From positions 19,318 through 83,317 of the forward strand of contig CAVRJY010000005.1 in the NCBI GenBank assembly GCA_963721805.1: a stretch of 64,000 nt of DNA, given 5' to 3'. Below the pieces are notes generated by a model. The model worked only from the letters and a program-made list of their open reading frames with translations. It was not told the origin of the DNA and ran no database searches. Below are positions 5,178 to 50,891 of the stretch, in pieces. A program made the translations under genes and the position numbers. Origin of the DNA: Nitrospirota bacterium. Its GTDB lineage: Bacteria > Nitrospirota > Thermodesulfovibrionia > Thermodesulfovibrionales > JdFR-86. The stretch's first letter is position 1, and every line of letters begins with the position of its first letter.

Positions 5178-5202
5178 ATGGAAAAGTGGTATTATTCCTG
5201 AA

Positions 5203-11128: not shown

Positions 11129-11134
11129 TTCCCT

Positions 11135-11377
11135 TTAGGCTGCTACGAGTTCTTCGTTTTGGATGGTAACCTTCGGATTAGGGTTTGACGGAGGCACGGG
11201 AAGCCCCTGTTCGTGGAGTAGGCTAACATGTTCGGCCATGCCCCATTTGGCCTTATAAAGGCAGTCCTCGACGGAATGCCCTATGCCGCTGAACCCTTCG
11301 AGGTCAGGCGAGTAGAAACCGAAATAATCGGGCTCCTTTGTGGCTTCGATAATCAACGAATACGGTATATCAATCAT
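11135..11377 (-). CDS. hicB: HicB family antitoxin
   Basis: 80-aa ORF, YSLIIEATKEPDYFGFYSPDLEGFSGIGHSVEDCLYKAKWGMAEHV. Lies directly downstream of the hicA remnant. Confidence 0.75.
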   Translation of the reverse strand: MIDIPYSLIIEATKEPDYFGFYSPDLEGFSGIGHSVEDCLYKAKWGMAEHVSLLHEQGLPVPPSNPNPKVTIQNEELVAA

Positions 11378-11386
11378 GGCGTCCTC

Positions 11387-11575
11387 CTATTTCCTCAACC
11401 CTGCGGCCTTGAGGATCGCGTTGCATGTCCCGGTGGGGATTTCCTTCGAGCCATGGAAATCGACTCTGATGAGCTTGTCCCAGCCCGGTCGGCTATAGTA
11501 TCGAATCGAGCCCTTTTCCTTTATCTGCCTGAATCCGGCTTCTTAAAGCATGCGGATCAGCTCGGAAAATTTCAT
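11387..11575 (-). pseudogene. hicA: HicA toxin with in-frame TAA at codon 11
   Basis: Minus-strand translation MKFSELIRML*EAGFRQIKEKGSIRYYSRPGWDKLIRVDFHGSKEIPTGTCNAILKAAGL. The stop is TTA at 11543-11545 on the plus strand. Confidence 0.7.
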
Positions 11576-11622
11576 GCCTTATTATAGCACTCCCGGCTTC
11601 AAGTAAATCCCGGACGCACTAT

Positions 11623-11842
11623 CTCTAATAAAAGCCGTTGACCACGGGGGTGCGGGGGGCGTCCGTTATCCTCTCCCCCCGAAAGCGCGCCCAAATCGGC
11701 TTCAGACAAGGGGACCGGTTGGCCCCTTTTCTTTAGGAAGAGGGGTCCGTGACCTCCGCCCGATGGTGTACTGTGACGTACTTAGAGGGCGAGTCTTTGA
11801 AGACCAACGACGTATCAAGCGATTTGGAGCGCTTTCACTTCC
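11623..11842 (+). repeat. SRE copy R4 (solo; head variant b; body with embedded terminator-like hairpin)
   Basis: CTCTAATAAAA plus GCCGTTGACC at 11634-11643. Hairpin GGGGACCGGTTGGCCCC plus T-run at 11710-11734. Tail ends 35 nt before dnaE. Confidence 0.85.
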
Positions 11843-11877
11843 GCATTGACTCCCCCCCGACATAACCGATAAAATTG

Positions 11878-14800: not shown

Positions 14801-15294
14801 GCTCTACGGTCGAGACCGCGGGGATCGTGACCGCGATCCGCCGCCTGCGCACTAAGAAGGACAAGGAGCGCATCATGGCCGCCCTCACGCTCGACGACGG
14901 CGAGGGCAGCATCGAGGTGATGGTGTGGCCGGACCTCTACGACGCCCAGCACGGCGGGATCAAGAAGGACGCGGCGTACCTCGTCAAGGGGACGTTCGAA
15001 AAGAGCGACCGGGGCTCGAAGATACTGGCCGATTCTTTGCGCGAGCTTGAAGGGATACTGCACAGCAAGGGCAACGGCCGCAAAGTGATCGTGAATGTCC
15101 AGAGCGGCAGCGCGGACATGCGCGCCCTGCGCGAGCTGCTGCCTTCGGCGCAAAACGGGATGCCTCTTTATATACGGGTGCGCATGGCCGACGCGGAGGT
15201 CTTGATACAGACCAGCCTTGAGGTCATGCCGGATGAGCCGCTGATCGCGCGCGTCGAGACCGCGCTGGGGGCCGGGGCGCTGGAGATTTTGTAA
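11878..15294 (+). CDS. dnaE: DNA polymerase III alpha subunit
   Basis: About 1138-aa ORF with PHP domain start FVPLHVHTEYSLLDG and a typical polymerase core. TTG 11875, ATG 11878 and ATG 11881 are all possible starts. Confidence 0.95.
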   Translation: MMQHSDFVPLHVHTEYSLLDGAIKLSELVKTASEYRMPAVAMTDHGNIFGAVEFYKSATKAGVNPIIGCEVYVTPGSRHDRGAQEGSARHHLVLLARDNVGYSNLVKLVSKAHIEGFYHKPRVDHELLELHHEGLIALSACLKGEVPSAFMHGDDAKARTLAKWYLDLFGKDNYWIELQDNGLKEQNEVNPKLVALAKSLGIGLVATNDSHYMKREDARAHEILLCIQTGKTMGDPTHMRFGTDQVYFKSPDEMHAAYHHLPEAVTNTRAIAERCHVEFELGVPRLPKFAPPEPYSPSEYLEKIAREGLSNMFAPAEPPANYIERLDYELAMFKKMKFASYFLIVWDFIRHAREEGIPVGPGRGSAAGSLVANSIGITDIDPLKYGLLFERFLNPDRISMPDIDVDFCKDRRGEVIKYVGEKYGQDHVCQIITFGTMAARAAIRDVARAMDFPYADADRIAKLIPEELKMTIEKAIGAEPQLRKEYEGNDAVRDLIDVAKRLEGLSRHASTHAAGVVISREPLMDIAPLYVNQSDKSIVTQFDMKSVEAMGLIKFDFLGLKTLTIIDNTLKLLHTDGIELDMKKIPLDDKKTYDMLSAGHSTGVFQLESSGMKDILLKMAPDRFEDLIAINALYRPGPIGSGMVDDFIKRKKGLTAVRYDVPQTREVLDETYGIILYQEQVMQIANRIGDFTMGQADELRKAMGKKLADKIEEKRATFVEAAVGHGVKEAKAVKLYGLMAKFAEYGFNKSHAAAYALVIYQTAYLKANYPVHFMAASLSADLDNTEKLVKSIKECRKMGISILPPDINLCGAEFRVSGQSIRFGLGAVKGVGVAALESIIETRRGSGHFKSTEDFLRRIDSRRVNKKVIEALIKAGAMDGFCEAAAGTLGVAACRHKALKTAAEAGGGAIPSMDLFGGTPEEQAAEDTWDEAELLRNEKEALGFYITGSPLDKYRKVLTAMGIPDITELEESADRSTVETAGIVTAIRRLRTKKDKERIMAALTLDDGEGSIEVMVWPDLYDAQHGGIKKDAAYLVKGTFEKSDRGSKILADSLRELEGILHSKGNGRKVIVNVQSGSADMRALRELLPSAQNGMPLYIRVRMADAEVLIQTSLEVMPDEPLIARVETALGAGALEIL

Positions 15295-15392
15295 GCTCGG
15301 TGAAAACGCGCTTTCCAAGATGGGCGAAAGCCGCTGGCCGCTGCCGCGGTCCGATTGACAGTTGAAGCATTAGGGCCTAAGCTTATGGTGTC

Positions 15393-15539
15393 ATGGACAA
15401 CGAAAATAACGAGCCCGCCCAGGTCATCTGCGGCAACTGCCTTGAGGAGGTCCCGCATGAGCTTTTCTGTGAAAACTGCGGGGTTATACTGAAGCCTTAC
15501 AGCAAACAATCATCTTCAAATCCCAGGGTATCTAGCTGA
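15393..15539 (+). CDS. Possible small zinc-ribbon protein (48 aa)
   Basis: CGNC...CENC pair of CxxC motifs, followed by a terminator hairpin. Short and unsupported otherwise. Confidence 0.35.
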   Translation: MDNENNEPAQVICGNCLEEVPHELFCENCGVILKPYSKQSSSNPRVSS

Positions 15540-15565
15540 CCCGTTAACCGCGATTGGAACCTACA

Positions 15566-15595
15566 GGGGGACCCTCAGGCCCCCCTTCCTTTTTA
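15566..15595 (+). terminator. Rho-independent terminator after dnaE / small ORF
   Basis: GGGGGACCCTCAGGCCCCCC followed by TTCCTTTTT. Confidence 0.7.
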
Positions 15596-15618
15596 GGAAT
15601 CTTACACCGCTCCCGCTA

Positions 15619-15813
15619 CCTTCTTGAAAGCGATCCAAAGTTCCGGGATACTGCGTCACGTCTCGGAAATCCGTCCTCGATGTACGTCTCAGTACACCGT
15701 CGGACGTTTTCCTCGCCGTTTCCTTGTCTGCCGAAATTTGGCCCGCTTTATGGGGTTAAACGCGGCCCAGCCGCTGGACCCCATACCCCGTGGTCAACGG
15801 CGTTAAATTAGGG
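15619..15813 (-). repeat. SRE copy R5 (head variant a, body type 2, unique covarying P2)
   Basis: Tail CCTTCTTGAAAGCG at 15619. Head GGTCAACGGCG at 15792-15802 plus AT box. Confidence 0.85.
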
Positions 15814-15983
15814 ACACCCATACTGCTACCGGCTACTTTGACATAGTATGTCTCAGTGTGATAAATAATAAGTGGAGGTGCAGATATGACATAGGATAAA
15901 ATGGCTATATTTTTTGAAATGGTTTCACCAAGTATAAGACGCCCTTTGGGCCGAAAATGATTGCGTTGTAAAAGGAAAAGAAA

Positions 15984-16166
15984 ATGGAAATTCAGCCGTC
16001 AAAGAAGAGCCAAGCGCTCCCACGTTGTCAGACCAAGATAAGCGGGTCAGGGTATAACTGCACTACCAATGATCCTGGGGTTCAGCAATACATAGGCAAG
16101 GGCATCTTAATTCTATTGATCTGTGTTGGAGTTGCCGTTATATTAAAGGCGATGCCCCGCAACTGA
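15984..16166 (+). CDS. Possible small C-terminally membrane-anchored protein (60 aa)
   Basis: AT-rich ORF with hydrophobic tail GILILLICVGVAVIL. A strong hairpin follows. Confidence 0.3.
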   Translation: MEIQPSKKSQALPRCQTKISGSGYNCTTNDPGVQQYIGKGILILLICVGVAVILKAMPRN

Positions 16167-16194
16167 TCGTTCTGTGCATAAGTAAATAGAGGCT

Positions 16195-16243
16195 ATAGAC
16201 ACCACGGCCCCTCGTTCGAGGGGCCGTGGTGTCTATATGTTTA
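16195..16243 (+). terminator. Very long perfect hairpin (19-bp stem)
   Basis: ATAGACACCACGGCCCCTC ... GAGGGGCCGTGGTGTCTAT. Weak T-run. Confidence 0.55.
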
Positions 16244-16310
16244 ACATGGGATCGATGATCTTGCAATCGTGAATAAAATTAATCGCTAATCAAGAACCTT
16301 CATTGGCGCG

Positions 16311-16511
16311 GGGGCAGCGGGAGCAAACCAGCCACTATTATAATGCCGTTGACCGCTCGCACGATTATGCAGGGGAAGGTTAAAGTGCGAGAAATCGTGT
16401 CAGACAAGGAACGGCGAGGAAAACCGTCCGCAGTCGTACTGGGATGTACTTCGAGGACGGATTTCCGAAGCCGTGACGACGTATCACGCGCATTTCGCGC
16501 GCTTTGAGAAC
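16311..16511 (+). repeat. SRE copy R6 (head type 2, body type 2; core from 16336)
   Basis: GGGGCAGCGGG extension, TATAAT at 16339-16344, GCCGTTGACC at 16345-16354. Tail ends at the stop codon of the response regulator. Confidence 0.85.
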
Positions 16512-16910
16512 CTAGACTATCAGCCGCAGCTTTTTTATCTCTTGAAGCAATAAACCCTTGTCTATGGGCTTGACTATGTAGGAGAGCGCCTCACCTTTAT
16601 AGAACGCGACCGATACGTTCTTCGGGTCGTCGAGCGACGTGATCATGATGACCTTCATCGCCTCGTGCGCCCCGATGCCGCGCTCGCGCTCCATCGCGCG
16701 GACGTGTTCGAGGGCCTCCTGCCCGCTGAGGTGCGGCATGATGATGTCCATCAGTATCAGGTCGTAGGGCGCGCCCTCGTCAAGCGCGATGCGGCAGGCC
16801 TGCACCGCCTCCAGCCCGTTTACGGCGACCTCGATGCTGCCGTACTCGCTCAGGATCGAGGTCAGGATCTGCCTGTTGACGAAGTCGTCCTCAGCGATCA
16901 GTATCTTCAT
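16512..16910 (-). CDS. Single-domain response regulator (CheY-like receiver)
   Basis: MKILIAEDD...DLILMDIIMP...KP receiver signature. Start set at the second Met. Confidence 0.85.
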   Translation of the reverse strand: MKILIAEDDFVNRQILTSILSEYGSIEVAVNGLEAVQACRIALDEGAPYDLILMDIIMPHLSGQEALEHVRAMERERGIGAHEAMKVIMITSLDDPKNVSVAFYKGEALSYIVKPIDKGLLLQEIKKLRLIV

Positions 16911-17040
16911 CGCGGTATCTTTCACGTTGATATTTTACAATATTTCTGGCTATTGCGCTTGATATTTCTGGTAATATATAGCAATAAGGGCTCGGAGCGG
17001 CATTTGTTATCAGGGCCGGGCGCGGAGGGGACAAGGACTC

Positions 17041-17868
17041 ATGGCCGAGGCCAGGGAAGTCAGCGAGTACATCAGGGGCATCAGGGAGGGCTCGACCCTC
17101 CCGGAGATGCTCGGCAAGATCATCGCGCTCGTGCAGGACGAGAACTCCTCGAGCGCGGACCTGTGCCGCCTGATCTCGTTCGACCAGGGCCTGGCCGAGA
17201 GCATCCTGCGCGTCGCCAACTCCTCGATGTTCGGCCACTCGGGCCGTATACGCGACATAGACCAGGCCGTGATGTTCCTGGGCTACCGCCAGATAAAGGC
17301 CATCGCGCTTGGGATGAGCGTGATGAAGGTCTTCCCGCCCGGCGGCTCGTTCAGCCTGCGGGCGCTCTGGGCGCACGGCTACGAGGTGGCGTGCATCGCA
17401 AACGCGCTGGCCGAGGCCGTGCCTTCGGCCACTGCGAGGGAGTGTTTTCTGGCCGGGCTGCTGCACGACATAGGCCGCGTGATATTCTGCCGCCTGGACG
17501 CGGAGCGGTTCCTGAAGATCGGCACCGGCGACGACATGCTGCAGCGCGAGCGCGAGCTCTACGGCTGCACGCACGAGGACGCCGGGCGGTGGTTTTTGGA
17601 GGACACGAAGCTCCCCGATGACATCATCATGCCGGTGGCCTTCCACCACCAGCCGGACAAGGCCACGTCGTACGCCGACTCTGTCGCGATAGTGTCGTTC
17701 GCCGAGGCGCTCTCGCGCGTGCTCAACCCCGAGCGGGAGAACGACGGCATATGGCTTGCGGCCCATGACGAGATCAACCGTAGATTCGCGCTCTCTCAGG
17801 ACCAGATCATGCAGATCGGCACGAGGCTTGCGCTGATGAAACGGGATATAGGAGTGTTTTTCAGATAA
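17041..17868 (+). CDS. HDOD domain signalling protein
   Basis: 275-aa ORF with GLLHDIGRVIF and a typical HDOD layout. Confidence 0.8.
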   Translation: MAEAREVSEYIRGIREGSTLPEMLGKIIALVQDENSSSADLCRLISFDQGLAESILRVANSSMFGHSGRIRDIDQAVMFLGYRQIKAIALGMSVMKVFPPGGSFSLRALWAHGYEVACIANALAEAVPSATARECFLAGLLHDIGRVIFCRLDAERFLKIGTGDDMLQRERELYGCTHEDAGRWFLEDTKLPDDIIMPVAFHHQPDKATSYADSVAIVSFAEALSRVLNPERENDGIWLAAHDEINRRFALSQDQIMQIGTRLALMKRDIGVFFR

Positions 17869-17889
17869 CGGCGTCAATTTGGGAGGTGG

Positions 17890-18747
17890 ATGTTGTCCGA
17901 TAACAGGGAGAAGATTTTAAAGACGCTGGACTTGCCGTCGGTGCCGATGGTCGCGCTAAAGATACTCCGGCTGATGGACAACCCCAACGCCGGGGTCGAT
18001 GACCTTCAAAACGCGATCATGGCCGACCAGGGCCTGGCGGCGCGCGTCATCCGCATGGCGAACTCGTCGTTCTACTCGATGAGCCGCGAGATCGACACAG
18101 TGAGCTCGGCGATCTTCGTGATGGGCTTCGGGACGATCAAGAACCTCGCGCTTGCGGTCGCGACGCGCGACATCTACAAGAAGTTCGGCCTGCTGGAGCA
18201 GAAGCTCTGGGAGCACAGCATCGGGGTCTCGGTCGCGGCGGGCATCATTGCGCGGCAGGTGAAGTTCTTCAAGCCCGAGGAGGCGGTCATGGCCGGGCTC
18301 CTGCACGACATCGGCAAGGTCGTCCTGAACAACAACCTCCCGGAGCAGTTTCTGGTGCTCACGCAGCGCGTGTACGAGGAAAACGTCATGTACTCGGAGA
18401 TCGAAAACGACATATTCGGGTTCGGCCACGCCGAGGTCGGCGGCCTCTTCGCCGAGAAGTGGAGGTTCCCCGAGGCGCTCGTGAGCGTCATCCAGCACCA
18501 CCACGACTGCGAGCAGTTCGCCTCGACGCTCCCGGCCGACGCCTCGGAGGCCAAGCTCTGCCGCATCATCGCGCTGGCGGACGCCATCTGCCTCCGCCTC
18601 GGCATAGGCTACAGCGGCCCGATGACCGACCTCAAGATCGACGAGGACGCGATGCTCGCGAAGCTCGACATACCCAAGGCGAAGTACCCGGAGCTGAAGG
18701 AAGACATAAAGCAGCAGTACATGAAGGAGAAGCTCTCGTTCCACTGA
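17890..18747 (+). CDS. HDOD domain signalling protein (paralog)
   Basis: 285-aa ORF with LPSVPMVALKILRL and GLLHDIGKVVL. Confidence 0.8.
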   Translation: MLSDNREKILKTLDLPSVPMVALKILRLMDNPNAGVDDLQNAIMADQGLAARVIRMANSSFYSMSREIDTVSSAIFVMGFGTIKNLALAVATRDIYKKFGLLEQKLWEHSIGVSVAAGIIARQVKFFKPEEAVMAGLLHDIGKVVLNNNLPEQFLVLTQRVYEENVMYSEIENDIFGFGHAEVGGLFAEKWRFPEALVSVIQHHHDCEQFASTLPADASEAKLCRIIALADAICLRLGIGYSGPMTDLKIDEDAMLAKLDIPKAKYPELKEDIKQQYMKEKLSFH

Positions 18748-18765
18748 GAAAGAGCTGAGGGGGCC

Positions 18766-19011
18766 GTGGAGATACCCGAGATAAAAGGCGCGTTAGAGGG
18801 CGCACCCTACGCCAGGCCAAAGGTGCGCAAGCCGGGCGAAAAGGACGTCGAGCCCACCGAGCGCATCGCGTTTACCGAGATAATCTCCGAAGACCAGCGC
18901 GAGGGGCACCACCCGCCCACCGAGGACCTCCATCCCGAGGCGAGGGGCGGCCACAAGAAAGAGGAGAAGGCCCCGCCGCCTCCGCCGGGCCACGTGGACA
19001 TAAAAGTTTAG
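18766..19011 (+). CDS. Hypothetical charged/proline-rich small protein
   Basis: 81-aa GTG-initiated ORF. No recognisable domain. Confidence 0.3.
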   Translation: MEIPEIKGALEGAPYARPKVRKPGEKDVEPTERIAFTEIISEDQREGHHPPTEDLHPEARGGHKKEEKAPPPPPGHVDIKV

Positions 19012-19044
19012 GGCCTGTCTCCAGCAGGCCCTGGGGGGGACGAG

Positions 19045-19887
19045 ATGAAAACAGCCGTTGTCCTGGCCGCCTCGATCTTCGCATTCGTCCTGGCCGCGGC
19101 CCTGCCGGCATTCGCCACCTGCACGCCGGGCACGGACTGGACCGTCTCCTGGACCGACCAGTATGGCGAGACGACTTATACACTCACCGCGCCGTGCAAG
19201 GTCTACATCGGCGTCCCGTTTAATATCAACGCTACGGCCTCAGACAGCTACTATCCAAACAGTTCGGTCGCGTACCCGTGGGCGATCTACGACGCGTACG
19301 ACCCGGGCACCGGGCTGGTCAACGATACCGTCGCGGGCGGCTCGTGGCTTACTCTCTCTGGCGGACACTGGCAGACGGTCGTCTCGCGCACATACAGCGG
19401 CACGCCATACGACCATACGATCGGTTTTTACGCCAACGACCTCGGCCACGGCACCGGGGCCCATAACTTCTCGCAGCAGATTGTCGGCAACGTGACCGTG
19501 GACCCGTTTCTGGTCGATGCGGGGCCGGACCTCGTCATAACCGCCAGCCAGCAGGGATCGACCGTGATCCACGGCACTACGGCGGGGACCGGGCTGAGCT
19601 ACCGCTGGCTGGAGGGGGCCACGGTTTTGCAGGGCTACCTGCCGGTGGACGGCTCGGGAGGCGCCCCGCTGGACCTCTCGACGCTCTCGCCGCTCTCCGA
19701 TGGCGCACACACACTCACGCTTCAGATCACCGACGGCAACGCCACGAACGCCGACGCCATGGTGCTCACGATAGGCGCCCCCGCGGCCGCATACGTGGGC
19801 TATGACCCCAAGTGGTTCGGCATAACCTTCCTTATACTTATGGCCGCCGGAGCGTATCTCTTGCGCGGGCGGACCGCGAGGAGTTAA
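19045..19887 (+). CDS. Secreted protein with N-terminal signal peptide and C-terminal TM plus basic sorting tail
   Basis: MKTAVVLAASIFAFVLAAALPAFA signal peptide. C-terminus is YDPKWFGITFLILMAAGAYLLRGRTARS. Lies directly upstream of the exosortase-like gene. Confidence 0.7.
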   Translation: MKTAVVLAASIFAFVLAAALPAFATCTPGTDWTVSWTDQYGETTYTLTAPCKVYIGVPFNINATASDSYYPNSSVAYPWAIYDAYDPGTGLVNDTVAGGSWLTLSGGHWQTVVSRTYSGTPYDHTIGFYANDLGHGTGAHNFSQQIVGNVTVDPFLVDAGPDLVITASQQGSTVIHGTTAGTGLSYRWLEGATVLQGYLPVDGSGGAPLDLSTLSPLSDGAHTLTLQITDGNATNADAMVLTIGAPAAAYVGYDPKWFGITFLILMAAGAYLLRGRTARS

Positions 19888-19910
19888 GCCCTCTGGTGAA
19901 CAGTTACACA

Positions 19911-20444
19911 ATGAGGGAAGGGGGCAGTCGCCCCCCATTCGGCCGCCCCCTGTGGCCCCTTGGCCTTGTTTTCGGCCTGACCGCGATAATCCTCAACGTG
20001 CTCGTGGCATACCTGATGGGCAACGGACATCTCGCATTCATACCCGACCTCACCGCTCGCGCGATAACCGCGCTGGTGCAGGCCTCGGGGCTGCACGCGG
20101 TGAGGGAGGGGCTCGTCATACACCTGACGAACAGCACCTGGGAGGTCGCGATCGAGTGCACCGCGGTCTTCATCATGCTCATATACGCCTCGTTCGTGCT
20201 CGTCTATCCGGCCTCCGTGAGGGCCAAGCTGGCCGCGCTGTTGGCCGGGATACCGTTTATCTTCTGCGCCAACATCCTGAGGCTGTACGCCATGGCCTGG
20301 ATCGATTACCTGATGCCCGGCTACAGCGCGGCCTTCCACAGCTACGTCTGGCAGGTGGCGTTCATACTTATGGTGGTCATGATGTGGCTTGGCTGGATCG
20401 CGCACCTCGGGGACGATGAGAGCAAGGCTCCTCTTTCTCGCTAA
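19911..20444 (+). CDS. Small exosortase/archaeosortase-family protein
   Basis: Polytopic 177 aa with candidate catalytic Cys (VAIECTAVF), NxxR (CANILRLY) and His (AAFHSYVW) motifs. Confidence 0.65.
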   Translation: MREGGSRPPFGRPLWPLGLVFGLTAIILNVLVAYLMGNGHLAFIPDLTARAITALVQASGLHAVREGLVIHLTNSTWEVAIECTAVFIMLIYASFVLVYPASVRAKLAALLAGIPFIFCANILRLYAMAWIDYLMPGYSAAFHSYVWQVAFILMVVMMWLGWIAHLGDDESKAPLSR

Positions 20445-20898
20445 GTTTCTGGGCTGCTCGCTGCTGCTTGACGCGGCCTGGCCTGCGGTGTCCTCGGCTT
20501 ATGTCGCCGCGCTCGGCGGCGCGCTCGATTGGCTGACCGGCGTGCCGGGCTTCTTCTCGCCCGGAGATGCCCCCGGCATAGCCGAGCTCAGCAGGCTCCT
20601 GATCCCCCTGTTTTCGCTCGTGCTCGTGACGCCCGGCGTGCGGCCCGCCAGGAGGGCGGCCCTGCTCGCGGCCGGGGCGGTCGCCTTCGGGGCCGACGAC
20701 CTCGCGGGCTACTGGTCGTTTGCGCAGCTCGTGCGCACGCACAGGCTGGCTCTGGGCAGCCCGCTGTTTCTCGCGGCCTCCGCCGTGCCGCTCACCGTAA
20801 AGTGGCTGCTGCCCTTCCTGCTGGGCGCGCTGCCGAATTACGCCCGCCTGAAGGCCGTATTCGCTCCGCCCCCGGCCCCCGCAACAGTCCCGGAATAG
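20416..20898 (+). CDS. Membrane protein, possibly exosortase-associated
   Basis: Overlaps the exosortase gene end. Multiple hydrophobic segments. Association inferred from position only. Confidence 0.4.
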   Translation: MRARLLFLAKFLGCSLLLDAAWPAVSSAYVAALGGALDWLTGVPGFFSPGDAPGIAELSRLLIPLFSLVLVTPGVRPARRAALLAAGAVAFGADDLAGYWSFAQLVRTHRLALGSPLFLAASAVPLTVKWLLPFLLGALPNYARLKAVFAPPPAPATVPE

Positions 20899-28726: not shown

Positions 28727-28935
28727 ATCTTCTAAAGTCGCGCTAAATACGCGTGATACGTCGTCACCGTTCGAAAAACGATCCTCGAAGTATGTCCATA
28801 TACGACTGCGGGGGTCACAGACCCCTCCTGTAAAGAAAAAGGTGCCCATGGCACCCCTAGTCTGACGCGATTTATCGCGCTTTAAAGTGGTCATTGCATA
28901 ATCGTGCGAGCGGTCAACGGCATTGATTAGAGCAT
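28727..28935 (-). repeat. SRE copy R8 (head type 2; body with embedded hairpins; GTAT/ATAC P4 variant)
   Basis: Tail CTTCTAAAGTCGCGCTAAATACGCG. Hairpins at 28808-28857. Head GGTCAACGGCAT ending 28923 plus TGATTAGAGCAT. Confidence 0.85.
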
Positions 28936-28949
28936 TTCGATTGCTGATT

Positions 28950-28958
28950 TGATATAAT
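28950..28958 (+). promoter_or_regulatory. Extended -10 promoter (TGaTATAAT), probably giving leaderless hicB mRNA
   Basis: TG at 28950-28951 and TATAAT at 28953-28958. The hicB-like ATG is at 28965, and no SD sequence lies between. Confidence 0.45.
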
Positions 28959-28964
28959 CGGGAT

Positions 28965-29192
28965 ATGAGGAAGATCAAGATAACCGCCGAGCTGTTGCCT
29001 GCCGAGGAAGGCGGCTTCGTGGTGTATTGCCCCGAACTCGACATAACCACCGAGGGCGAGACCGCCGAGGAGGCAATCGCGATGCTCAAGGATGCCGCGC
29101 TTGGGTATGTCGAGGTCACGGGCATCGAGAACATCCCCCATTTTTCCGCTAATACCGTCCGGGAAGAGCTTGAACTCGTGGTGAATGGCTAA
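28965..29192 (+). CDS. hicB: HicB-like antitoxin
   Basis: 75 aa, GGFVVYCPELDITTEGETAEEAIAMLKDAA. Overlaps the hicA start. Confidence 0.7.
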   Translation: MRKIKITAELLPAEEGGFVVYCPELDITTEGETAEEAIAMLKDAALGYVEVTGIENIPHFSANTVREELELVVNG

Positions 29193-29433
29193 AGCGCCTT
29201 CCGTCAGCGGCAAGGAGCTGTCCGCTGTGCTTGAGAGGGAGGGCTTCAAGCTCGTAAGGCAGACCGGAAGCCACAGGATATATCAGAAGCAGACCGAAGA
29301 AGGCACAATTACAATCCCCGTCCCGGTGCATTCGAACAAGCCGCTTAAGAAAGGCACCCTCCACGCGATCATCAAGAAAGCCGGAATCACGATGGAGAGA
29401 CTTTCGTTCCTGCTCGCGATCCTGTTCGGCTAG
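29185..29433 (+). CDS. hicA: HicA family toxin
   Basis: 82 aa, GKELSAVLEREGFKLVRQTGSHRIY...PVHSNKPLKKGTLHAIIKKAGI. Confidence 0.75.
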   Translation: MAKAPSVSGKELSAVLEREGFKLVRQTGSHRIYQKQTEEGTITIPVPVHSNKPLKKGTLHAIIKKAGITMERLSFLLAILFG

Positions 29434-29519
29434 GGGGCAGCGCCCCTTGGCTGCCGAAATTTATCGCGCTTTGATGTAGCTTATGCCTAACCGTGCGAGC
29501 GGTCAACGGCATGTTGAGG
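29434..29519 (-). repeat. SRE copy R9 (3'-truncated: head, P1 and first part of P2 only, ending at a GGGGC..GCCCC hairpin)
   Basis: Head GGTCAACGGCAT at 29501-29512. CCGAAATTTATCGCGCTTTG resembles R5. Hairpin at 29434-29446. Confidence 0.7.
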
Positions 29520-29524
29520 CTACC

Positions 29525-30349
29525 TCATTCAGCGGTTGACCAAGCAGCGTAATACGTGTCGTTCAAGTAATTTGCAAGCTTGTTGGTCCCATCAACAAAC
29601 TGCTTCCATACCTGTCGAGTTTCAACAAGCAGAAAATCCAACTCAAAATCAGGAGGTTGTTGTCCAGGGATTGCCAATAATTTGCCTTTTTCTTGCTGTA
29701 TTGGTGCTATCTGAGTCTCCTTAGGCCAATCCACATATGGTGTCTCATTGTGGACAAATTCATGTCGATATGTTTTCATCAGCTTTCTTGTTTCTTCTGA
29801 ATCGAAACATTCATAAAGCAGACTGCACAATTCAGGGTTCTTCTTATTGGCTTTCTTGCAATATATTGAGAAAGACATTTTCTGTTTATTTGTTTCTGTA
29901 TTGATAAAACATAATTTAGCATGCGAGTTCAGTAACCATGCGAGCTTTTCACGATAAGAATGTAGCCTGAATATCGCATTATCCAAGTAATATTTCGAAT
30001 AAAACCAAGCTTCGCCACAGAACGATTTCGAATCCACAAAATCAAGGAATTCAGCACACTGACTTTTTGTCTTTTGCTCATTAAGGTATCTTGACCAAGC
30101 TAAGGCCCAACTGAGACTAACAGCTATAGAGCTTCCACAGTTGTAGACTTGTCTCCACCATTTTGGAATATTATTTACATCACAGTAAAACTCAATAGAA
30201 TCGAGAGCGGGACGCTTCAGAATATTACCTAGAGAAATCCTGCCTTTTGGCAGTGGCAAACTGTCCCAGTCAGTATTTTCAATTTTTAAGGATGTTGCGT
30301 ATTCGGCAACTATACGGAGTCTATCAAGGTAGGCTTCTTTTTCATCCAT
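29525..30349 (-). CDS. AT-rich hypothetical protein with C-terminal Rx4H motif (YRHEFVHN); possible HEPN-type
   Basis: 274-aa ORF with composition far below the backbone. HEPN assignment rests only on the motif. Confidence 0.5.
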   Translation of the reverse strand: MDEKEAYLDRLRIVAEYATSLKIENTDWDSLPLPKGRISLGNILKRPALDSIEFYCDVNNIPKWWRQVYNCGSSIAVSLSWALAWSRYLNEQKTKSQCAEFLDFVDSKSFCGEAWFYSKYYLDNAIFRLHSYREKLAWLLNSHAKLCFINTETNKQKMSFSIYCKKANKKNPELCSLLYECFDSEETRKLMKTYRHEFVHNETPYVDWPKETQIAPIQQEKGKLLAIPGQQPPDFELDFLLVETRQVWKQFVDGTNKLANYLNDTYYAAWSTAE

Positions 30350-30379
30350 CTTTCTTCCCTCTCGGCCACCAGCAAAACC

Positions 30380-30601
30380 TTACGTCAGCAGGCTCGCCAC
30401 AGAGATGTCCTCGTCGATCTCTTCCCAGTGTATGCCGATTCCCCGGCCTATGAGGCGCCATCCGGCGCGCTGGGCCTCGGACGCGTCACGGAGCCTAGGG
30501 AACCACTCGAACGGGACACTTATCTGCCGGCCGTCTAGGAGGCGCACATGCAACATATCGTTATCGAACCATACGGCGTTTGCTATATGAGCAGTAGACA
30601 T
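30380..30601 (-). CDS. DUF2442 domain protein
   Basis: 73 aa, LHVRLLDGRQISVPFEWFPRLRDASEAQRAGWRLIGRGIGIHWEEIDEDIS. Confidence 0.7.
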   Translation of the reverse strand: MSTAHIANAVWFDNDMLHVRLLDGRQISVPFEWFPRLRDASEAQRAGWRLIGRGIGIHWEEIDEDISVASLLT

Positions 30602-30666
30602 GAGTTGATTATACCACTTCGATTATTGCCGGCCGATTGTCCCCACTCACCGCTGAGCTGTGCCCC

Positions 30667-31028
30667 CTTCATTAACAATAGTTAATCGAAAGTTAATAGA
30701 AAACGCACAGGGCTCAATTTTTCCTATAACCTTCTGTTTATATATAAACCAAAGTTTGGCATTCTTTAGTGTATAGTGGTGACATGAGCATGATAGAATC
30801 ATATTTGATGGGCTGGACAGGCGAGGATGCAGGGTTCCGCACTTGTTCGGATAAATCGCTAAATACCGCTCTTTTTATCCGAACATCCGAACAAGACGGA
30901 CTCAGTGAAGCTATATATTCCGCAGGGTTAGCCTCGTTTTTGTCTCCAACATCCGAACAAAAAAGGCAAAAACGCGCGCGCACGCGCGCGGAATGCGTAA
31001 CTATACCTAAGCGCGAACGTCCGAACAC
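30667..31028 (+). repeat. Module X1: 360-bp AT-rich module fused to the head of R10
   Basis: Roughly 75-80 percent identical (by eye), with no indels, to 47670-48032. Contains ATTAAC/GTTAAT sites, GTTTATATATAAAC, five ATCCGAACA-like sites and a (CG)n palindrome at 30973-30990. Confidence 0.8.
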
Positions 31029-31205
31029 GCCTTTGACCTCGTGGGGCGCGGGGGGCCTCCGTAATGTTCTCCCCCCGAAAGCGCGCCCAAATCGGCTTCA
31101 GACAAGGCAGGGCGAGAAGACCGCCCGATGGTGTACTGTGACGTACATAGAGGGCGAGTCCTCGCAGCCCAACGCAGTATCAAGCGATTTGGCGCGCTTT
31201 GCACC
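31029..31205 (+). repeat. SRE copy R10 (head variant b, body type 1)
   Basis: GCCTTTGACC at 31029-31038. Tail GATTTGGCGCGCTTTGCACC ends 37 nt before ald. Confidence 0.85.
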
Positions 31206-31242
31206 TATTGCCAATAACGATTATTTTGAGTACCATATACCC

Positions 31243-32337
31243 ATGGTAATCGGCGTGCCGAAAGAGATCAAGCCCCAGGAGCACAGAGTGGCCCTCACGC
31301 CCGAGGGCGCGCGCGAACTGGTGCGCGAGGGCCACACAGTGCTGTGCGAGGCCTCGCTCGGCGAGGGCAGCGGATTTCGGGACATGGACTATATCGCGGC
31401 GGGCGCGTCGATCGTGCCCAAGGAGGCGGTGTTCGCGGACGCCGCGCTCGTCATCAAGGTCAAGGAGCCGATACCCGAGGAGTTCCCGTTCCTGCGGCCC
31501 GGGCTTGCGCTCTTCACCTTCCTGCACCTCGCGGCCAACACCGCTCTGACGGACACGCTGATGCGGGGCCGCATCACAGCCCTTGCGTACGAGACGCTCA
31601 CGCGCGGCGGCCGTTTCCCGCTCCTGATGCCGATGAGCGAGATAGCCGGGCGGATGGCCCCGATCATGGGGGCGCACTACATCCAGCGCACCTATGGCGG
31701 AAGCGGCCTGCTGCCCTCTGGAGTGCCGGGCGTGGCCCCGGCGGGCATGCTCGTATTGGGCTCGGGCGTCGTAGGCTCAAACGCCGCGCGCGTCGCGGTT
31801 GGCCTCGGCATGGACGTGACCGTGCTCGGGCAGGACATCGCCCAGCTTCGCGAGATAGACCGCGAGCACTGTTTCAGGGTCAAGACGCGCGTGTTCTCGG
31901 ACGAGGCGCTGGAGGAATGCCTCGCGCTGGCGGACGTCGTGGTAGGCGCGGTGCTCGTAAACGGGGAGCGCGCCCCGGTGCTCGTACGGCGCTCGATGCT
32001 CACTCTCATGAGGCGCGGCGCGGTCGTCGTGGACGTCTCGATAGACCAGGGCGGCTGCTTCGAGTCCTCGCACCCGACCACTCACGCCGACCCCGTGTTC
32101 GTGGACTCGGGCGTGGTGCACTACTGTGTGGCGAACATGCCGGGCGCGTATCCTCACACCTCGACGCTCGCTCTGACGCATGCAACGCTGCCGTACATCA
32201 GGGCGCTCGCTTCAAAGGGCATAGAGGTCGCGATGAAGAAGGACGCGGAGCTCAGAAGCGCGCTTAACGCCTATGACGGGATGATTGCCCACAGGGGGCT
32301 TGCGGAGTCGACCGGGCTGCCGTTTACGGAGTTTTAG
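31243..32337 (+). CDS. ald: Alanine dehydrogenase
   Basis: MVIGVPKEIKPQEHRVALTPEG start and an NAD-binding GSGVVG motif. The 522-aa track ORF is read-through of X1/R10. Confidence 0.9.
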   Translation: MVIGVPKEIKPQEHRVALTPEGARELVREGHTVLCEASLGEGSGFRDMDYIAAGASIVPKEAVFADAALVIKVKEPIPEEFPFLRPGLALFTFLHLAANTALTDTLMRGRITALAYETLTRGGRFPLLMPMSEIAGRMAPIMGAHYIQRTYGGSGLLPSGVPGVAPAGMLVLGSGVVGSNAARVAVGLGMDVTVLGQDIAQLREIDREHCFRVKTRVFSDEALEECLALADVVVGAVLVNGERAPVLVRRSMLTLMRRGAVVVDVSIDQGGCFESSHPTTHADPVFVDSGVVHYCVANMPGAYPHTSTLALTHATLPYIRALASKGIEVAMKKDAELRSALNAYDGMIAHRGLAESTGLPFTEF

Positions 32338-44181: not shown

Positions 44182-44789
44182 CTCGGCACCTTTATTATAT
44201 GCCTCACCGCGCCGCCTGAGTGCGGGAGTTCGACGTCTATGACCTCGCACTCGACCCCGGCGATCTCCTCTTCGTAACGCGGCCCTTTATTCAGCACGAA
44301 AGCGCCGCCGGGGGCGACTATGTCCCCTGCCCCTTCAATAAATTCCCTCACACTAAATAGCGCGCGCGTCACCGCGATGTCCGCGCTGATGCCCGAGGCC
44401 TCCGAGACCTTGGCGTTGATAACCGTGATGCCCGTAAGATTGAGCCGCCGGATGATATGCCGAAGGAACGCGCACTTCTTCTTCGCGGGCTCGATCAGGT
44501 ATACCGTGATATCCGGGCGCATTATCTTGATAGGCACGCCCGGAAACCCCGCGCCGGTGCCGATGTCCGCGAGGCTGTGCACCTCCGGGCCGATAGCGCG
44601 CAGGTATAGGCAGCTGTCCAGCATGTGCTTTACAGCGATCTCATTGGCGTCGCGCAGCGCGGTGAGGTTGTGCGTGCGGCCCCAGCGGCTGAGCTCGTCC
44701 ATGTGAAGCACCATAGCCGAGACCTGCGCGGCGGTGGCCTCGATGCCGAGGCTGGCGAGGCCGTCTGAGATTATCTCATCAGGCCGCAC
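44178..44789 (-). CDS. rsmG: 16S rRNA (guanine527-N7)-methyltransferase
   Basis: 203 aa with SAM motif DIGTGAGFPGVPIKI. Immediately downstream of mnmG. Confidence 0.85.
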   Translation of the reverse strand: MRPDEIISDGLASLGIEATAAQVSAMVLHMDELSRWGRTHNLTALRDANEIAVKHMLDSCLYLRAIGPEVHSLADIGTGAGFPGVPIKIMRPDITVYLIEPAKKKCAFLRHIIRRLNLTGITVINAKVSEASGISADIAVTRALFSVREFIEGAGDIVAPGGAFVLNKGPRYEEEIAGVECEVIDVELPHSGGAVRHIIKVPR

Positions 44790-46642
44790 TCCGGCGGTCC
44801 CTCTCTAACATTATGATCAGGAGTGAGAGAGCGACCGGCGTGACGCCGGGTATGCGGCTTGCCTGCCCGAGGCTCCGGGGCCTGACCTCCTCGAGCTTGT
44901 GGCGCACCTCGGTCGAGAGGCCGGTGATCGCGGCATAGTCGAACCCGGCCGGGATCGCCATCGACTCGGCGCGCCGCAGCTTCTCTGCCGCCTCGCGCTG
45001 GCGCAGGATGTAGCCCGAGTACTTCACCTCGGTCTGGATCAGCATCGCATCGTCGGCACTGAACTCGGCGGCGGGCGGCGATATGCGCGAGATCGAGGGA
45101 TAGTCCATCTCCGGCCGCTTAAGCAGCGTATCGAGCATCACACTCTCGGCAATCGGCGAGGTCCCGCGCTCGCTAAGTATTGGATTTGCGTCACGCGGCT
45201 TGCAGCGCGTCGTGCGGATGCGCTCGATCTCGGAAAGCACCAAGCGGCGCTTTTCGCTAAACGCACGGTGGGCATCATCAGAAATCAGCCCGGCCTCGTG
45301 GCCCTTGTCCGTCAGGCGCATCTGGGCGTTGTCGTGGCGCAGCAGCAGGCGGTATTCCGCGCGCGAGGTGAACATGCGGTACGGCTCGTTCGTGCCCTTT
45401 GTCACGAGATCGTCTATCAGGATGCCGATGTACGCCTCGTCGCGGCCAAGGATCAGCGGAGCGCGGCCCTGAAGCGAGAGCGCGGCGTTTATCCCGGCCA
45501 TTATCCCCTGTGATGCGGCCTCCTCGTACCCGGAGGTCCCGTTTATCTGCCCGGCGAGGTAGAGACCGCGTACCGCCTTGGTCTCTAATGAGTGCGTGAT
45601 CTGCGTGGGGTATACGAAGTCGTACTCTATCGCGTATGCCGGGCGCATGATCTCGGCGGCCTCAAGCCCCGCGATAGAATGAACCAGCGCGACCTGCACG
45701 TCATATGGCAGGCTCGTCGAGATCCCGTTTGCGTAGTATTCCTCGGTCTTCAGCCCTTCGGGCTCCAAAAATACCTGATGCCGCTCGCGCGCGGCAAAGC
45801 GCATCACCTTGTCCTCTATCGAGGGGCAGTATCTGGGGCCTATGCCTGTTATCTGTCCACTATACAATGGTGAGCGGTCCAGAGATCCACGGATGATCTC
45901 GTGCGTGGTCGCGTTCGTATATGTCATGTAGCACGGGAGCTGTTGGTTCGTGATCTCGCGGGTCGAGTGCGAAAACGGGGGCGGCGGGACGTCGCCATAG
46001 TGAGCGGTCGTCTTTGAGAAGTCTATCGAGCGGGCGTCTATACGGGGCGGTGTGCCGGTCTTGAGGCGGCCCAATCTCAGGCCCATCGCAGGCGAGAGAT
46101 TCGGATATGCCTAACGCGGGGAACTCACCGGCGCGTCCTGCGCTGATCTGGCTCAGGCCTATGTGCATCAGTCCGTTCAGAAACGTACCGGTCGTGACGA
46201 TCACCGAGCGCCCAGCGATGAACACGCCGATGTTATCGATAACGCCTGTGACTCGTCCGCCCTCATGCGTTATGTCCACGATATTGGCCTGCCGGATCGT
46301 GAGGCCCGCCTGCGCCTCGATCGACTGGCGCATATTGGTGCGGTACAGGGCGCGGTCGGCCTGCGCGCGGAGCGACCAGACGGCGGGGCCCTTAGAGAGG
46401 TTGAGCATCTTGAAGTGGATGCCCGAGCGGTCGGTGACGCGCGCCATCTCGCCGCCCAGCGCGTCGATCTCGCGGACTAGGTGGCCCTTCGCGAGCCCGC
46501 CGATGGCCGGGTTGCAGGACATCTGGCCTATCGTATCGAGGTTCATCGTGCAGAGGCACGTACGCATACCCATCCTAGCCGCAGCCAGAGCGGCCTCGCA
46601 ACCGGCGTGGCCGGCACCGATAACTATTACGTCGAATGACAT
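44779..46642 (-). pseudogene. mnmG: tRNA uridine 5-carboxymethylaminomethyl modification enzyme MnmG, split by one frame change
   Basis: ORF 45860..46642 (GAGHAGCEAA FAD motif) and ORF 44779..46086 (GRLKTGTPPRID onward) together give full-length MnmG. The shift lies near 46085-46100. Confidence 0.85.
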
Positions 46643-46674
46643 CCCTTATAATAACATCCGCGCTATTTCAGTCG

Positions 46675-46863
46675 CCTTCTTCAAAGTCGCGCGAAATACG
46701 CGTGATACTGCGTCAGGGCTTCAGAAATCCGTCCTCAACGTACGTCACAGTACGCCTCGGACGTTTTCATTGCCCTTCCTTGTCTGACACAATTTCTCGC
46801 GCTTTAGCAATGAGCTGCCTGCGCGTGCGAGCGGTCAACGGCTTTGATAAGAGGGGGCACTCG
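46675..46863 (-). repeat. SRE copy R14 (head type 2, body type 2)
   Basis: Tail CCTTCTTCAAAGTCGCG at 46675 (32 nt from the mnmG start). Head GGTCAACGGC at 46843-46852 plus TTTGATAAGAG. Confidence 0.85.
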
Positions 46864-46903
46864 GCCCGGCCGCTGCTCCGGAGCTCCCGAGGAAGGCTAT
46901 TAA

Positions 46904-47479
46904 TTAAGCAGAAGATGTTTTATTGAAAGCTCTCCCTGAGTGAATCCATGAAGCAATTACAGCTATCAATAAAACCAAATCAAATAAAATAAGGCATTTT
47001 TCCCAGCGTGTAATATTTTGAAGAGAGTCATAATTAGATATCAAAAAAATCAATAAAGGACCAAGCGGCATAAGAACCAGTAAAAAATTACGCCCCAAGG
47101 CTACAAGCCATAGCTGTCCGCTAGTACTTTGGTGAAAGGTTTCCCATTCAAATGCATCATTGTAAGTTAATAATCTAATTCTTGGATATAAAATGCTTGA
47201 AAAATACCTTCCGATTCTGTAAACCATAAGCTGATTATCGTAATACAGCAAAACAAGAGGTGCCGTTATAATTGGAGCAACGAGCATAATTGATGCAAAT
47301 GATTCTTCTCCATGGAGTTTAACATAAGCCGCAAGTGCACCAGCTAAAATCACTATCAGAACATTAAGTATTGTTGAGTTAATTGTAAGTCTAGTCTTTT
47401 GTTCATCGCGCAAGGCTCGGTATTCTGTGAGATAAACTTCAATATCTTTCTTGTCCTGTATTTCTTCTGACATTAACAA
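46904..47479 (-). CDS. AT-rich polytopic membrane protein, hypothetical
   Basis: 191-aa ORF with four hydrophobic segments. No family recognised. Confidence 0.5.
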   Translation of the reverse strand: MLMSEEIQDKKDIEVYLTEYRALRDEQKTRLTINSTILNVLIVILAGALAAYVKLHGEESFASIMLVAPIITAPLVLLYYDNQLMVYRIGRYFSSILYPRIRLLTYNDAFEWETFHQSTSGQLWLVALGRNFLLVLMPLGPLLIFLISNYDSLQNITRWEKCLILFDLVLLIAVIASWIHSGRAFNKTSSA

Positions 47480-47669
47480 ACACCTTTACCTATCAACCTT
47501 GTCCCAGCTTTCGTTGAAGCCCTAAGGGCTCGCCTTGCCATTATCATAAACTGCCTACATTTATCTGTCAATAATATTTTGCAGCAAGACAACCGTGAGG
47601 CTTAATCATATCGCCATATTCGCATACGTTCGGAACTGGTTTATGGGAAAGAGTTCCCATGGCATCTCT

Positions 47670-48032
47670 CTTCATTAACCATAGTTAATCGAAAGTTAAT
47701 AGAAAACGAATGGCCCCTAATTTTTCCTATTATCTTCGGTTTATATATGAACCAAAGTTTGGCATTCTTTAGTGTATAGTGGAGGCTATGAGTATGATAG
47801 AGTCCTATTTGATGGTCGCGGCAAGTGTTATGGATGTCCGCGCCGCGTGTTCGGATAATGGGCCAAAAACATCGCTTTTTATCCGAACATTCGAACAGGG
47901 GAACTTTTCAAAAGCTAGTAAATCCGGTGGGTTAGCTCCGATTTTGCCCCCAACATCCGAACAAAATCGGCAAAAACGCGCGCGTGCGCGCGCGGTATGC
48001 ATATATATGCCTAAGCGGGGATATCCGAACAT
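47670..48032 (+). repeat. Module X2: second copy of the 360-bp AT-rich module, fused to the head of R15
   Basis: Collinear with X1. GGAGG then ATG at 47794. Inverted repeat GTTCGGATAA (47849-47858) / TTATCCGAAC (47879-47888). (CG)n palindrome at 47977-47994. Confidence 0.8.
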
Positions 48033-48201
48033 GCCGTTGACCGCTCGCACGCGCAGGCGGGAGAAACTTAAAGCGCGAGAAATCAGCGTCAGACTAGGAG
48101 CGGCGAGGGAAACGTCCGAGGGTGTACTGAGACGTACATCGAGGACGGATTTCCGAAGCCGCGACAACGTATCACGCGATTTGGCGCGCTTTGGAGAAAA
48201 C
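48033..48201 (+). repeat. SRE copy R15 (head type 2, body type 2)
   Basis: GCCGTTGACC at 48033-48042. Tail GATTTGGCGCGCTTTGGAGAAAAC. Confidence 0.85.
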
Positions 48202-48219
48202 TACAAACGCAGCTTTCTC

Positions 48220-50688: not shown

Positions 50689-50695
50689 TCCGCAG

Positions 50696-50891
50696 TCTTT
50701 TTCAAAGCGCTCCAAATCGCTTGATACGTCGTCATCAGTCGAAAATAGTCCTCGGAGTATGTCCATATACACCTGCGTCCTATTTTCGCCTTCTTCCTAG
50801 TCTGAAGACGATTTGGCCGCGCTTTCGGGGGTTGGTCGCGGCCCAGCCGCTGGACCCCCGCACCCCCAAGGTCAACGGCTTAGATTAGATA
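50696..50891 (-). repeat. SRE copy R16 (head variant a; private P3 AAAATAG/CTATTTT; GTAT/ATAC P4)
   Basis: Tail GTCTTTTTCAAAGCGCTCC at 50696. Head GGTCAACGGC at 50870-50879 plus TTAGATTAGATA. Confidence 0.85.

Follow-up and report, generated by a model that had tools for sequence, protein, structure and literature searches.

What is a module of about 360 nucleotides (nt), here called X, doing at the head of a repeat element? Two copies of it occur in the stretch analysed, 64,000 nt of a Nitrospirota bacterium (contig CAVRJY010000005.1, positions 19,318 to 83,317; the whole stretch is referred to as the window), each joined to one of the 19 copies of a repeat, SRE, that are spread over 4992-62711. 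Our answer is a tentative one: X may be a cis-acting scaffold with multiple protein-binding sites, used at the head junction by a trans-encoded recombinase or transposase, or by an accessory protein. What is said below of binding, recombination and transcription is inferred from sequence.

Module X is non-coding and always fused to SRE heads

The two copies in the window, X1 and X2, are homologous from end to end and align with 76.8% identity over 362 nt, in agreement with the 20-25 percent divergence estimated by eye in the initial annotation. That annotation had also described them as aligning without any indel; their lengths are 362 and 363 nt, and one 1-nt indel lies near 30779/47783. Twelve further copies were found, three as DNA from two other metagenome assemblies and nine as annotated "proteins" of 113-177 amino acids (aa), known only as mis-called open reading frames (ORFs). 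Two reading frames through X are open, and searches of protein collections with translated X returned 11 such ORFs: six on a single 1.55-Mb contig, one on a 13.7-kb contig, two present only in the representative library, and two that gave X4 and X5. DNA-level comparisons concern the five readable copies among the total of 14:

30667..31028, plus strand: X1, whole module, GC about 0.44
47670..48032, plus strand: X2, whole module
L002 10684-11018 (ENA assembly ERZ25039558): X3, at the same locus as X2 in a relative with about 87% DNA identity to the window
L010 9902-10262 (ERZ25039558): X4, DNA copy reached through a mis-called ORF
L011 457-about 800 (ERZ27248000): X5, DNA copy reached through a mis-called ORF

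All 14 copies run on in the same sense into an SRE, and the first base of a plus-sense SRE head (GCCGTTGACC or a variant) follows directly on the last base of X. The fusion first described for X1 and X2 thus extends to every copy, with none lying away from a head, and the SREs concerned belong to several head subtypes. The SREs that frame the two copies in the window are:

31029..31204, plus strand: SRE fused to X1, head GCCTTTGACC from 31029
48033..48204, plus strand: SRE fused to X2, head GCCGTTGACC from 48033, of a head subtype unlike that of the X1 SRE
28730..28932, minus strand: left-arm SRE of the X1 slot, with a partial second minus-sense SRE at 29440-29519
46671..46853, minus strand: left-arm SRE of the X2 slot

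X does not encode a protein. Its dN/dS is 0.5-1.3 across all six frames, mismatches between X1 and X2 are not 3-periodic, and frameshifting indels in some copies (P0270-P0272, P0275) place the motifs in other frames. Gene callers annotate X together with SRE (window 30784-31243; P0016, P0264-P0275) as hypothetical proteins of 113-177 aa, and call alanine dehydrogenase (Ald) 70 residues too long, through an SRE (434 versus 364 aa). In practical terms, both the hypothetical proteins and the Ald extension are annotation errors.

The module is confined to a narrow lineage, because an exhaustive HMMER search of 1.84 billion protein representatives gave only eight real matches. An exact 20-mer from X produced one chance match, inside an unrelated gene, among 185,579 species genomes; DNA pattern scans of viral and JGI metagenome collections gave nothing real, blastn of X plus SRE gave no match in plasmid and phage collections, and a literature search gave nothing specific. 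When the window and related loci were scanned with a profile of the five DNA copies (nhmmer), no additional X turned up, whether partial or degenerate. Among named proteins, Ald and MnmG have their best homologues in Nitrospirota/Thermodesulfovibrionales, at 57-70% identity. About 36 kb of a more distant relative (Ald 70%, MnmG 79%) contain no detectable SRE or X. In this relative a contig breaks 172 nt upstream of MnmG, and the sequence there (L008 1-172) resembles an SRE tail variant, AATTTCGATCGCTTTC; diverged SRE-like repeats may be present, although the SRE profile finds none.

Conserved blocks and a motif array with fixed spacing

The internal features of X are listed with the coordinates of X1, followed by those of X2.

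30671..30697 (47674-47700): outer-edge block, an inverted pair ATTAAC-AATA-GTTAAT with a further GTTAAT 11 bp on
30736..30779 (47739-47782): most conserved block of X1-X3, (G)GTTTATATATAAAC(C), CCAAAGTTTGG and GTGTATAGTGG
30844..30885, plus strand (47848-47889): inverted motif pair TGTTCGGAT(A/G)A ... TTATCCGAACA
30885..30893, plus strand (47889-47897): direct motif c (ATCCGAACA), 8 nt after motif b
30951..30959, plus strand (47955-47963): direct motif d, 66 nt after c
30963..30990, minus strand (47967-47994): alternating CG palindrome followed by a T run, resembling an intrinsic terminator
31019..31028, plus strand (48023-48032): direct motif e (GTCCGAACAC), touching the SRE head in the generic pre-head position

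The outer-edge block, the palindromes at 30736-30759, the inverted pair and the sites beginning at 30885, 30951 and 31019 lie where the initial annotation had placed them, and its description of conserved blocks between variable spacers of equal length is borne out by statistics. In the three-way alignment of X1-X3 the dispersion index is 1.69, compared with 0.63 in permuted alignments (p<0.0002), and invariant runs of 12 nt or longer sum to 65 bases, compared with 8.6 (p<0.0002). Invariant runs in this alignment are 9-21 nt long, and the invariant blocks include AATTTTTCCTAT; GTTTATATAT followed by AACCAAAGTTTGGCATTCTTT; GTGTATAGTGG; TGTTCGGAT; TTTTTATCCGAACAT; and CCAACATCCGAACAAAA. The core common to all five copies comprises the outer-edge inverted pair, a 16-bp palindrome (GGTTTATATATAAACC), ATAGTG, the motifs and the CG run; from the block at 30736..30779 only the palindrome and ATAGTG are common to all, and the third GTTAAT is absent from X4. 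A hairpin formed by the first and third GTTAAT was rejected: X3 shows one compensatory change, but X4 does not have the third site.

The array consists of five copies of a 9-10 bp motif, one inverted and four direct. Their starts are spaced 33/8/66/68 nt apart in X1, X2 and X4, 33/8/66/64 in X3 and 33/8/67 in X5, so that spacing is near-invariant in the five copies. All eight exact occurrences of ATCCGAACA in the window fall inside X1 or X2; for the window as a whole, about 0.5 would be expected by chance (128 kb over 4^9). The inverted pair GTTCGGATAA / TTATCCGAAC occupies 30845-54 and 30875-84, and its stem is prolonged by a purine run opposite a T run, giving 10 G.U-type cells over the five copies; on the opposite strand these 10 cells would be C.A mismatches.

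Some spacer stretches fall to 57-60% identity, which is below the value predicted from the 4-fold sites of flanking genes (19-33% divergent). Spacers of fixed length that are themselves unstructured suggest that the architecture of X reflects a DNA-protein complex rather than an RNA.

The terminator-like CG palindrome on the minus strand is present in four of the five copies, half of it being deleted in X3. As first reported, its centre reads CA in X1 (30981-82) and TG in X2 (47985-86). The accompanying suggestion that the hairpin had flipped is unnecessary, as two transitions suffice and the centre varies in the other copies as well (it differs in X4 and is shortened in X5). Just beyond the outer edge of X2 lies another hairpin, ATGGGAA-N4-TTCCCAT (47641-47662), which also occurs in the left flank of X4.

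The motif of X is related to the sequence before every SRE head

Before each SRE head stands a short AT-rich sequence, the pre-head motif, for example CTCTAATCAAT or ATCCAATCAT. When the pre-head 10-mers of 23 heads without X were compared in fixed register with the X motif, ATCCGAACAT, they matched at 4.0 of 10 positions on average, compared with 2.57 +/- 0.29 for cargo controls (p<5e-5), and the best of them, such as ATCCAATCAT, matched at 7-8. The X motif is evidently a variant of this pre-head sequence, which no SRE head lacks. The two also exchange places at the junction. In X1-X3 the last motif stands where the pre-head would be; X4 has motif e and then a generic pre-head; and X5 has a generic pre-head instead of motif e, with pre-head and head duplicated in tandem (L011 790-842: ctctaatcat|GCCGTTGACCC followed by atccaatcat|GCCGTTGACC). 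Because the last motif and the pre-head interchange in this way, X can be described as a reiterated junction motif with additional blocks. The scar of direct repeats at the X5 junction would fit site-specific recombination.

The SRE core, read from head to tail, has 27 pairs, 12 of them with compensatory changes, and a folding energy of -16.0 kcal/mol, whereas the reverse strand has 14 pairs and -6.8 kcal/mol. Since covariation occurs only in the head-to-tail sense and the reverse folds poorly, SRE is by this evidence a strand-specific structured RNA or single-stranded DNA; it is absent from Rfam. Most SRE tails border directly on the 3' end of a native gene, in either orientation. At orthologous loci (window 50694-50894 and L002 7793-7989; window 48101-48216 and L002) the head module is kept at 80-90% identity while the core module belongs to another subtype (35-68%), between flanking genes at about 90-95%, which points to swapping of SRE modules or gene conversion among repeats.

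A solo plus-sense SRE (54201-54387) lies between the PBP2 and RodA genes, antisense to what is normally one operon, and the same position holds an SRE in the relative (L002 5593-5777).

Cargo slots and their turnover

Seven head-to-head pairs of a minus-sense and a plus-sense SRE in the 64 kb enclose AT-rich cargo of 0.5-2.1 kb.

15619/16335, 28730/31017, 35400/36901, 46671/48019, 50694/52864, 60886/62510 and 5721/5880, minus/plus: SRE pairs
28933..30666: cargo of the X1 slot, with HicB/HicA, a Cthe_2314-like HEPN protein (274 aa) and DUF2442
46854..47669: cargo of the X2 slot, with an AT-rich membrane-like ORF of 191 aa (46904-47479, minus strand)

Across the slots the cargo includes HicAB, HEPN with DUF2442, Abi_C, GNATs, a SpeD-like enzyme, DUF4258/DUF2283 and membrane proteins. 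X is present in two of the seven slots, each time on the side of the plus arm, and no X-like motif array stands beside the left arms, in accordance with the earlier proposal that X makes these units asymmetric.

The cargo junctions, ...GGTCAACGGC| and |GCCGTTGACC..., are inverted halves of a palindrome and not direct repeats, and they are mirror images of each other (TCAA-CGGCA-TTGA and TCAA-TGCCG-TTGA). Cargo turns over at these borders. In the slot at 50.9-52.9 kb both heads are common to the window and L002 (30/30 positions identical on one side), the cargo is unrelated (1969 versus 715 nt), and homology ends exactly at both heads. At the X2/X3 locus it ends at the outer edge of X (window 47671), and in L002 a prophage-like region (11019-20468) begins directly at the outer edge of X3, with a DNA methyltransferase fragment, a 1064-aa tail/baseplate-like protein (tail fibre), a tail assembly chaperone and a minor tail protein. 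X2 and X3, although at the same locus, share 76.7% identity, compared with 76.4% for the paralogues X1 and X3 and 76.8% for X1 and X2. Because X2 and X3 are no closer than paralogues, and because SRE cores are swapped while heads stay, the X/SRE system is, on these comparisons, one that evolves as a mosaic. Overall, it looks like a dispersed system of cargo slots that carries no enzyme gene of its own.

In the X2 slot a leftward promoter-like site, TTGACA-17-TATGAT, lies at 47571->47543 on the minus strand, and the same module is kept beside X5 (L011 about 400-450) despite unrelated cargo genes downstream. Beside X1, an extended -10 sequence (TGGTATAAT, 30608-30616, minus strand) is situated 6 nt before the start codon of DUF2442, and this short distance suggests that the DUF2442 mRNA is leaderless.

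Several other features of these regions deserve mention. The HicAB cassette (28730-29541) has a full minus-sense SRE on one side and a 73-nt partial one (29440-29519) in the same sense on the other, with a head-like GCGGTTGACC on the opposite strand at 29532, 21 nt beyond the partial copy; a nitroreductase gene (5170-5706) is likewise placed between two same-sense SRE(-) copies. Downstream of X and its SRE are the housekeeping genes Ald, OsmC, PHP and a GATase-like gene. The coding sequence of MnmG (GidA; 44779-46642) is broken into two ORFs that overlap in different frames (45860-46642, N-terminal, and 44779-46086, C-terminal), the result of either a frameshift/pseudogene or an assembly error. 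Two 49-nt direct repeats with 94% identity and 99-nt spacing (2584-2731) fall in the Pro/Ala-rich N-terminal part of a 519-aa ORF (2424-3983).

A possible docking scaffold for a trans-encoded enzyme

We hypothesize that X is a non-coding, cis-acting DNA module by which a plus-sense SRE arm is lengthened on the side facing the cargo. The five phased motifs of X would be reiterations of the pre-head motif, the last of them placed directly at the head. These motifs and the palindromic outer-edge blocks could jointly bind several copies of a DNA-binding protein supplied in trans, which might be a site-specific recombinase, a transposase or an accessory factor encoded elsewhere. An asymmetric nucleoprotein complex would then form at the cargo junction, where AT-rich genes (of toxin-antitoxin, HEPN, GNAT and similar types) may be inserted or swapped between inverted SRE arms. 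If this is correct, a dispersed system moves defence and toxin-antitoxin genes with no enzyme of its own, and X identifies its active, asymmetric side; gene flux in this poorly known phylum would then have a new route, and the compact cis sites of X (a 9-bp motif at fixed spacing) are open to direct binding assays.

Several observations weigh against this hypothesis. No recombinase, transposase or integrase gene was found in about 125 kb (window, L002, L010 and L011), with the window ORFs read by eye and the genes of the other three loci annotated with Pfam; in particular, none of the five X-bearing slots contains an integrase gene, the prophage beside X3 being covered at its near end. The cargo junctions are inverted rather than direct, an arrangement for which simple integration and excision by a tyrosine recombinase would not be the obvious interpretation. 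Five of the seven SRE pairs in the window hold cargo without X, which shows that X is not required for a filled slot. The G.U-type pairs in the inverted repeat of X and the folding of SRE in the plus sense only are strand-specific signals that point to a single-stranded, possibly RNA, role. Finally, the scaffold leaves the terminator-like hairpin on the minus strand of X unexplained.

A broader version of the same hypothesis, for which we see a rather low probability, is that X and the inverted SRE pairs constitute an undescribed, chromosome-wide system of cassette docking in an uncultured, Nitrospirota-like lineage. Core genes would be followed by dozens of landing pads made of structured repeats, and each pad could capture and swap defence or toxin-antitoxin cargo at its palindromic head junction. 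X would be an attI-like platform with multiple sites, for a recombinase encoded elsewhere that possibly acts on single-stranded, folded DNA.

Alternative explanations for X

The main competitor of protein docking on DNA, an alternative already raised in the initial annotation, is a role in transcription: X would be the 5' leader and/or regulatory region for a plus-sense RNA that extends beyond X into SRE. Its motifs would be protein-binding or pairing sites in the RNA, or else operators for a transcription factor that controls SRE transcription. The strand-specific covariation of the SRE core fits this explanation, as do the position of X, upstream of SRE in that sense without exception, the G.U-type cells of the inverted-repeat stem, and the finding of no plus-strand terminator between X and SRE. 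However, no sigma-70-type promoter was identified within X on either strand, and the pre-head motif, considered as a -10 box in a hexamer scan, lacks the conserved A at position 2 and is not supported in that role. RNAalifold, run on three and on five copies, gave a positive covariation term, i.e. a penalty, on both strands and predicted only the invariant palindromes, so a conserved global RNA fold finds no support and covariation is absent outside those palindromes. Among Rfam 15 covariance models, the single match at the gathering threshold in the whole window was a tRNA, and at E<=1 the region 30500-31300 gave only a chance hit to mir-2450 (20.7 bits versus a cut-off of 59). The rigid lengths of unstructured, diverged spacers are also unexpected for an RNA, the majority of SREs have no X, and the usual neighbour of an SRE tail, whichever its orientation, is the 3' end of a native gene. 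We regard an RNA leader as less likely than the scaffold, and keep it as a serious candidate because of the missing enzyme, the inverted junctions, the filled slots without X and the strand-specific folding.

A still smaller probability attaches to X being a functionless remnant, either an att arm from a prophage or integrative element with SRE heads as its target or a mosaic-repeat module whose copies are kept alike by gene conversion. This would agree with the prophage-like end that directly adjoins X3, with the failure of X2 and X3 to resemble each other more than paralogues do, and with the swapping of SRE modules at orthologous loci. Decay, on the other hand, would not preserve one outer edge in five contexts or a near-invariant motif spacing, and it would not keep invariant runs of 9-21 nt while flanking stretches drop to 57-60% identity; gene conversion alone leaves the choice of fixed blocks unexplained.

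It is improbable that X is an origin-like site (oriT, a nick site for rolling-circle/HUH enzymes, or an iteron origin) for replication or transfer of excised cargo. The AT-rich perfect palindrome GGTTTATATATAAACC is followed by the X1-X3 block at 30747-30779 (ATAGTG alone in all five) and, further downstream, by short direct and inverted repeats, and in some copies hairpins would block incoming transcription from both sides, all of which an origin might show. In contrast, no Rep, relaxase or HUH gene is nearby in the window or related loci, 9-bp motifs at 8/66/68-nt spacing are not tandem iterons of 17-22 bp, there is no similarity to plasmid or phage sequences, and cumulative GC skew shows a steady climb over the window and does not reverse at X1 or X2. 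The chromosomal origin, oriC, near mnmG was likewise ruled out by the existence of two X copies and the steady rise in GC skew.

Least credible of all is a small protein encoded by the plus-frame ORF MSMIESYLM..., the one called by gene callers: no stop codon interrupts this frame in the three DNA copies compared and X plus SRE appears as an ORF of 113-177 aa in 11 database entries, but dN/dS in this frame is 0.57-0.75 with similar values in other frames, the "protein" would cross the (CG)n palindrome and the structured SRE, it has no Pfam domains, and dN/dS, periodicity and frameshifts together rule it out.

Comparison with known systems

We compared the module with characterized recombination sites and mobile elements. 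The ends of Tn7 and Mu carry several transposase-binding repeats of about 20 bp at both ends, inverted between the ends, with a 5-bp target duplication, TG/CA tips and a DDE transposase of the TnsB/MuA type. X is similar in that motif copies are spread over 150-200 bp beside a junction, with the outermost at the junction, different sides and fixed spacing. It differs in having a motif of 9-10 bp rather than about 20 bp, one inverted copy and an array on one arm only; the units, of 0.5-2 kb, carry no enzyme gene and show neither the target duplication nor the tips. A TnsB/MuA-type gene was found neither among the window ORFs read by eye nor among the Pfam-annotated genes of L002, L010 and L011. 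Membership of X in this class is not supported on these grounds. Of the idea, raised by the initial annotation, that X is a multi-site end of the Tn7 or Mu kind, what survives is a generic protein-binding region at the end of an element; the specific likeness is not supported, on account of site length, the one-sided array, the inverted junctions and the lack of an enzyme gene in about 125 kb of window and related loci.

Attachment sites of the lambda type have an identical core in direct orientation at both junctions and an adjacent tyrosine integrase gene. Resemblances to these sites, and to attI, are the accessory direct repeats of X that adjoin a pair of inverted core-like sites, and the outer edge, ATTAAC-N4-GTTAAT with a GTTAAT at 11-bp spacing, that borders variable genes. 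The junctions of X slots are mirror images and not direct core repeats, and no integrase lies beside X. Iteron origins have tandem iterons of 17-22 bp at helical phasing and an adjacent rep gene, whereas X has 9-bp motifs at 33/8/66/68 nt, no rep gene and no plasmid match.

Like BIMEs of Escherichia coli and the NIMEs and Correia elements of Neisseria, X and SRE are short intergenic modules in varied order, one module replacing another at orthologous loci. A further parallel is with mobile insertion cassettes (MIC231, for example), in which inverted arms enclose passenger genes without a transposase. MITEs and such cassettes have terminal inverted repeats that match a parent insertion sequence (IS), and a target duplication; here inverted arms of about 190 nt enclose the passengers, but neither a parent IS nor a target duplication was found, nor any similarity in plasmid and phage collections. 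Unlike all of these families, the SRE arms of about 190 nt are structured and covarying and X is a 360-nt module with phased internal motifs; there is no sequence similarity to them and no known parent IS.

The last comparison is with integrons, in which intI lies beside attI, core sites have the form RYYYAAC ... GTTRRRY, and an array of same-sense cassettes follows, each ending in a folded attC. X is not accompanied by intI, and is followed by SRE and then by housekeeping genes; cargo lies between inverted sites, SRE tails have no attC-type core sites, and the slots are dispersed among core genes, with only short runs of two same-sense SRE(-) copies. The likenesses were scored by eye and without statistics: the head pair GGTCAAC/GTTGACC fits RYYYAAC/GTTRRRY at 6/7 positions each, and the edge of X, ATTAAC/GTTAAT, fits the core at 5-6/7. 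The cargo of the slots (toxin-antitoxin pairs, GNATs and small unknown ORFs) resembles the cassettes of chromosomal integrons, and single cassettes (HicAB; nitroreductase) each lie between two same-sense SRE(-) copies. Taken with the core-like GTTRAY sites and the types of cargo, these flanking copies make the resemblance of X and SRE to an integron suggestive.

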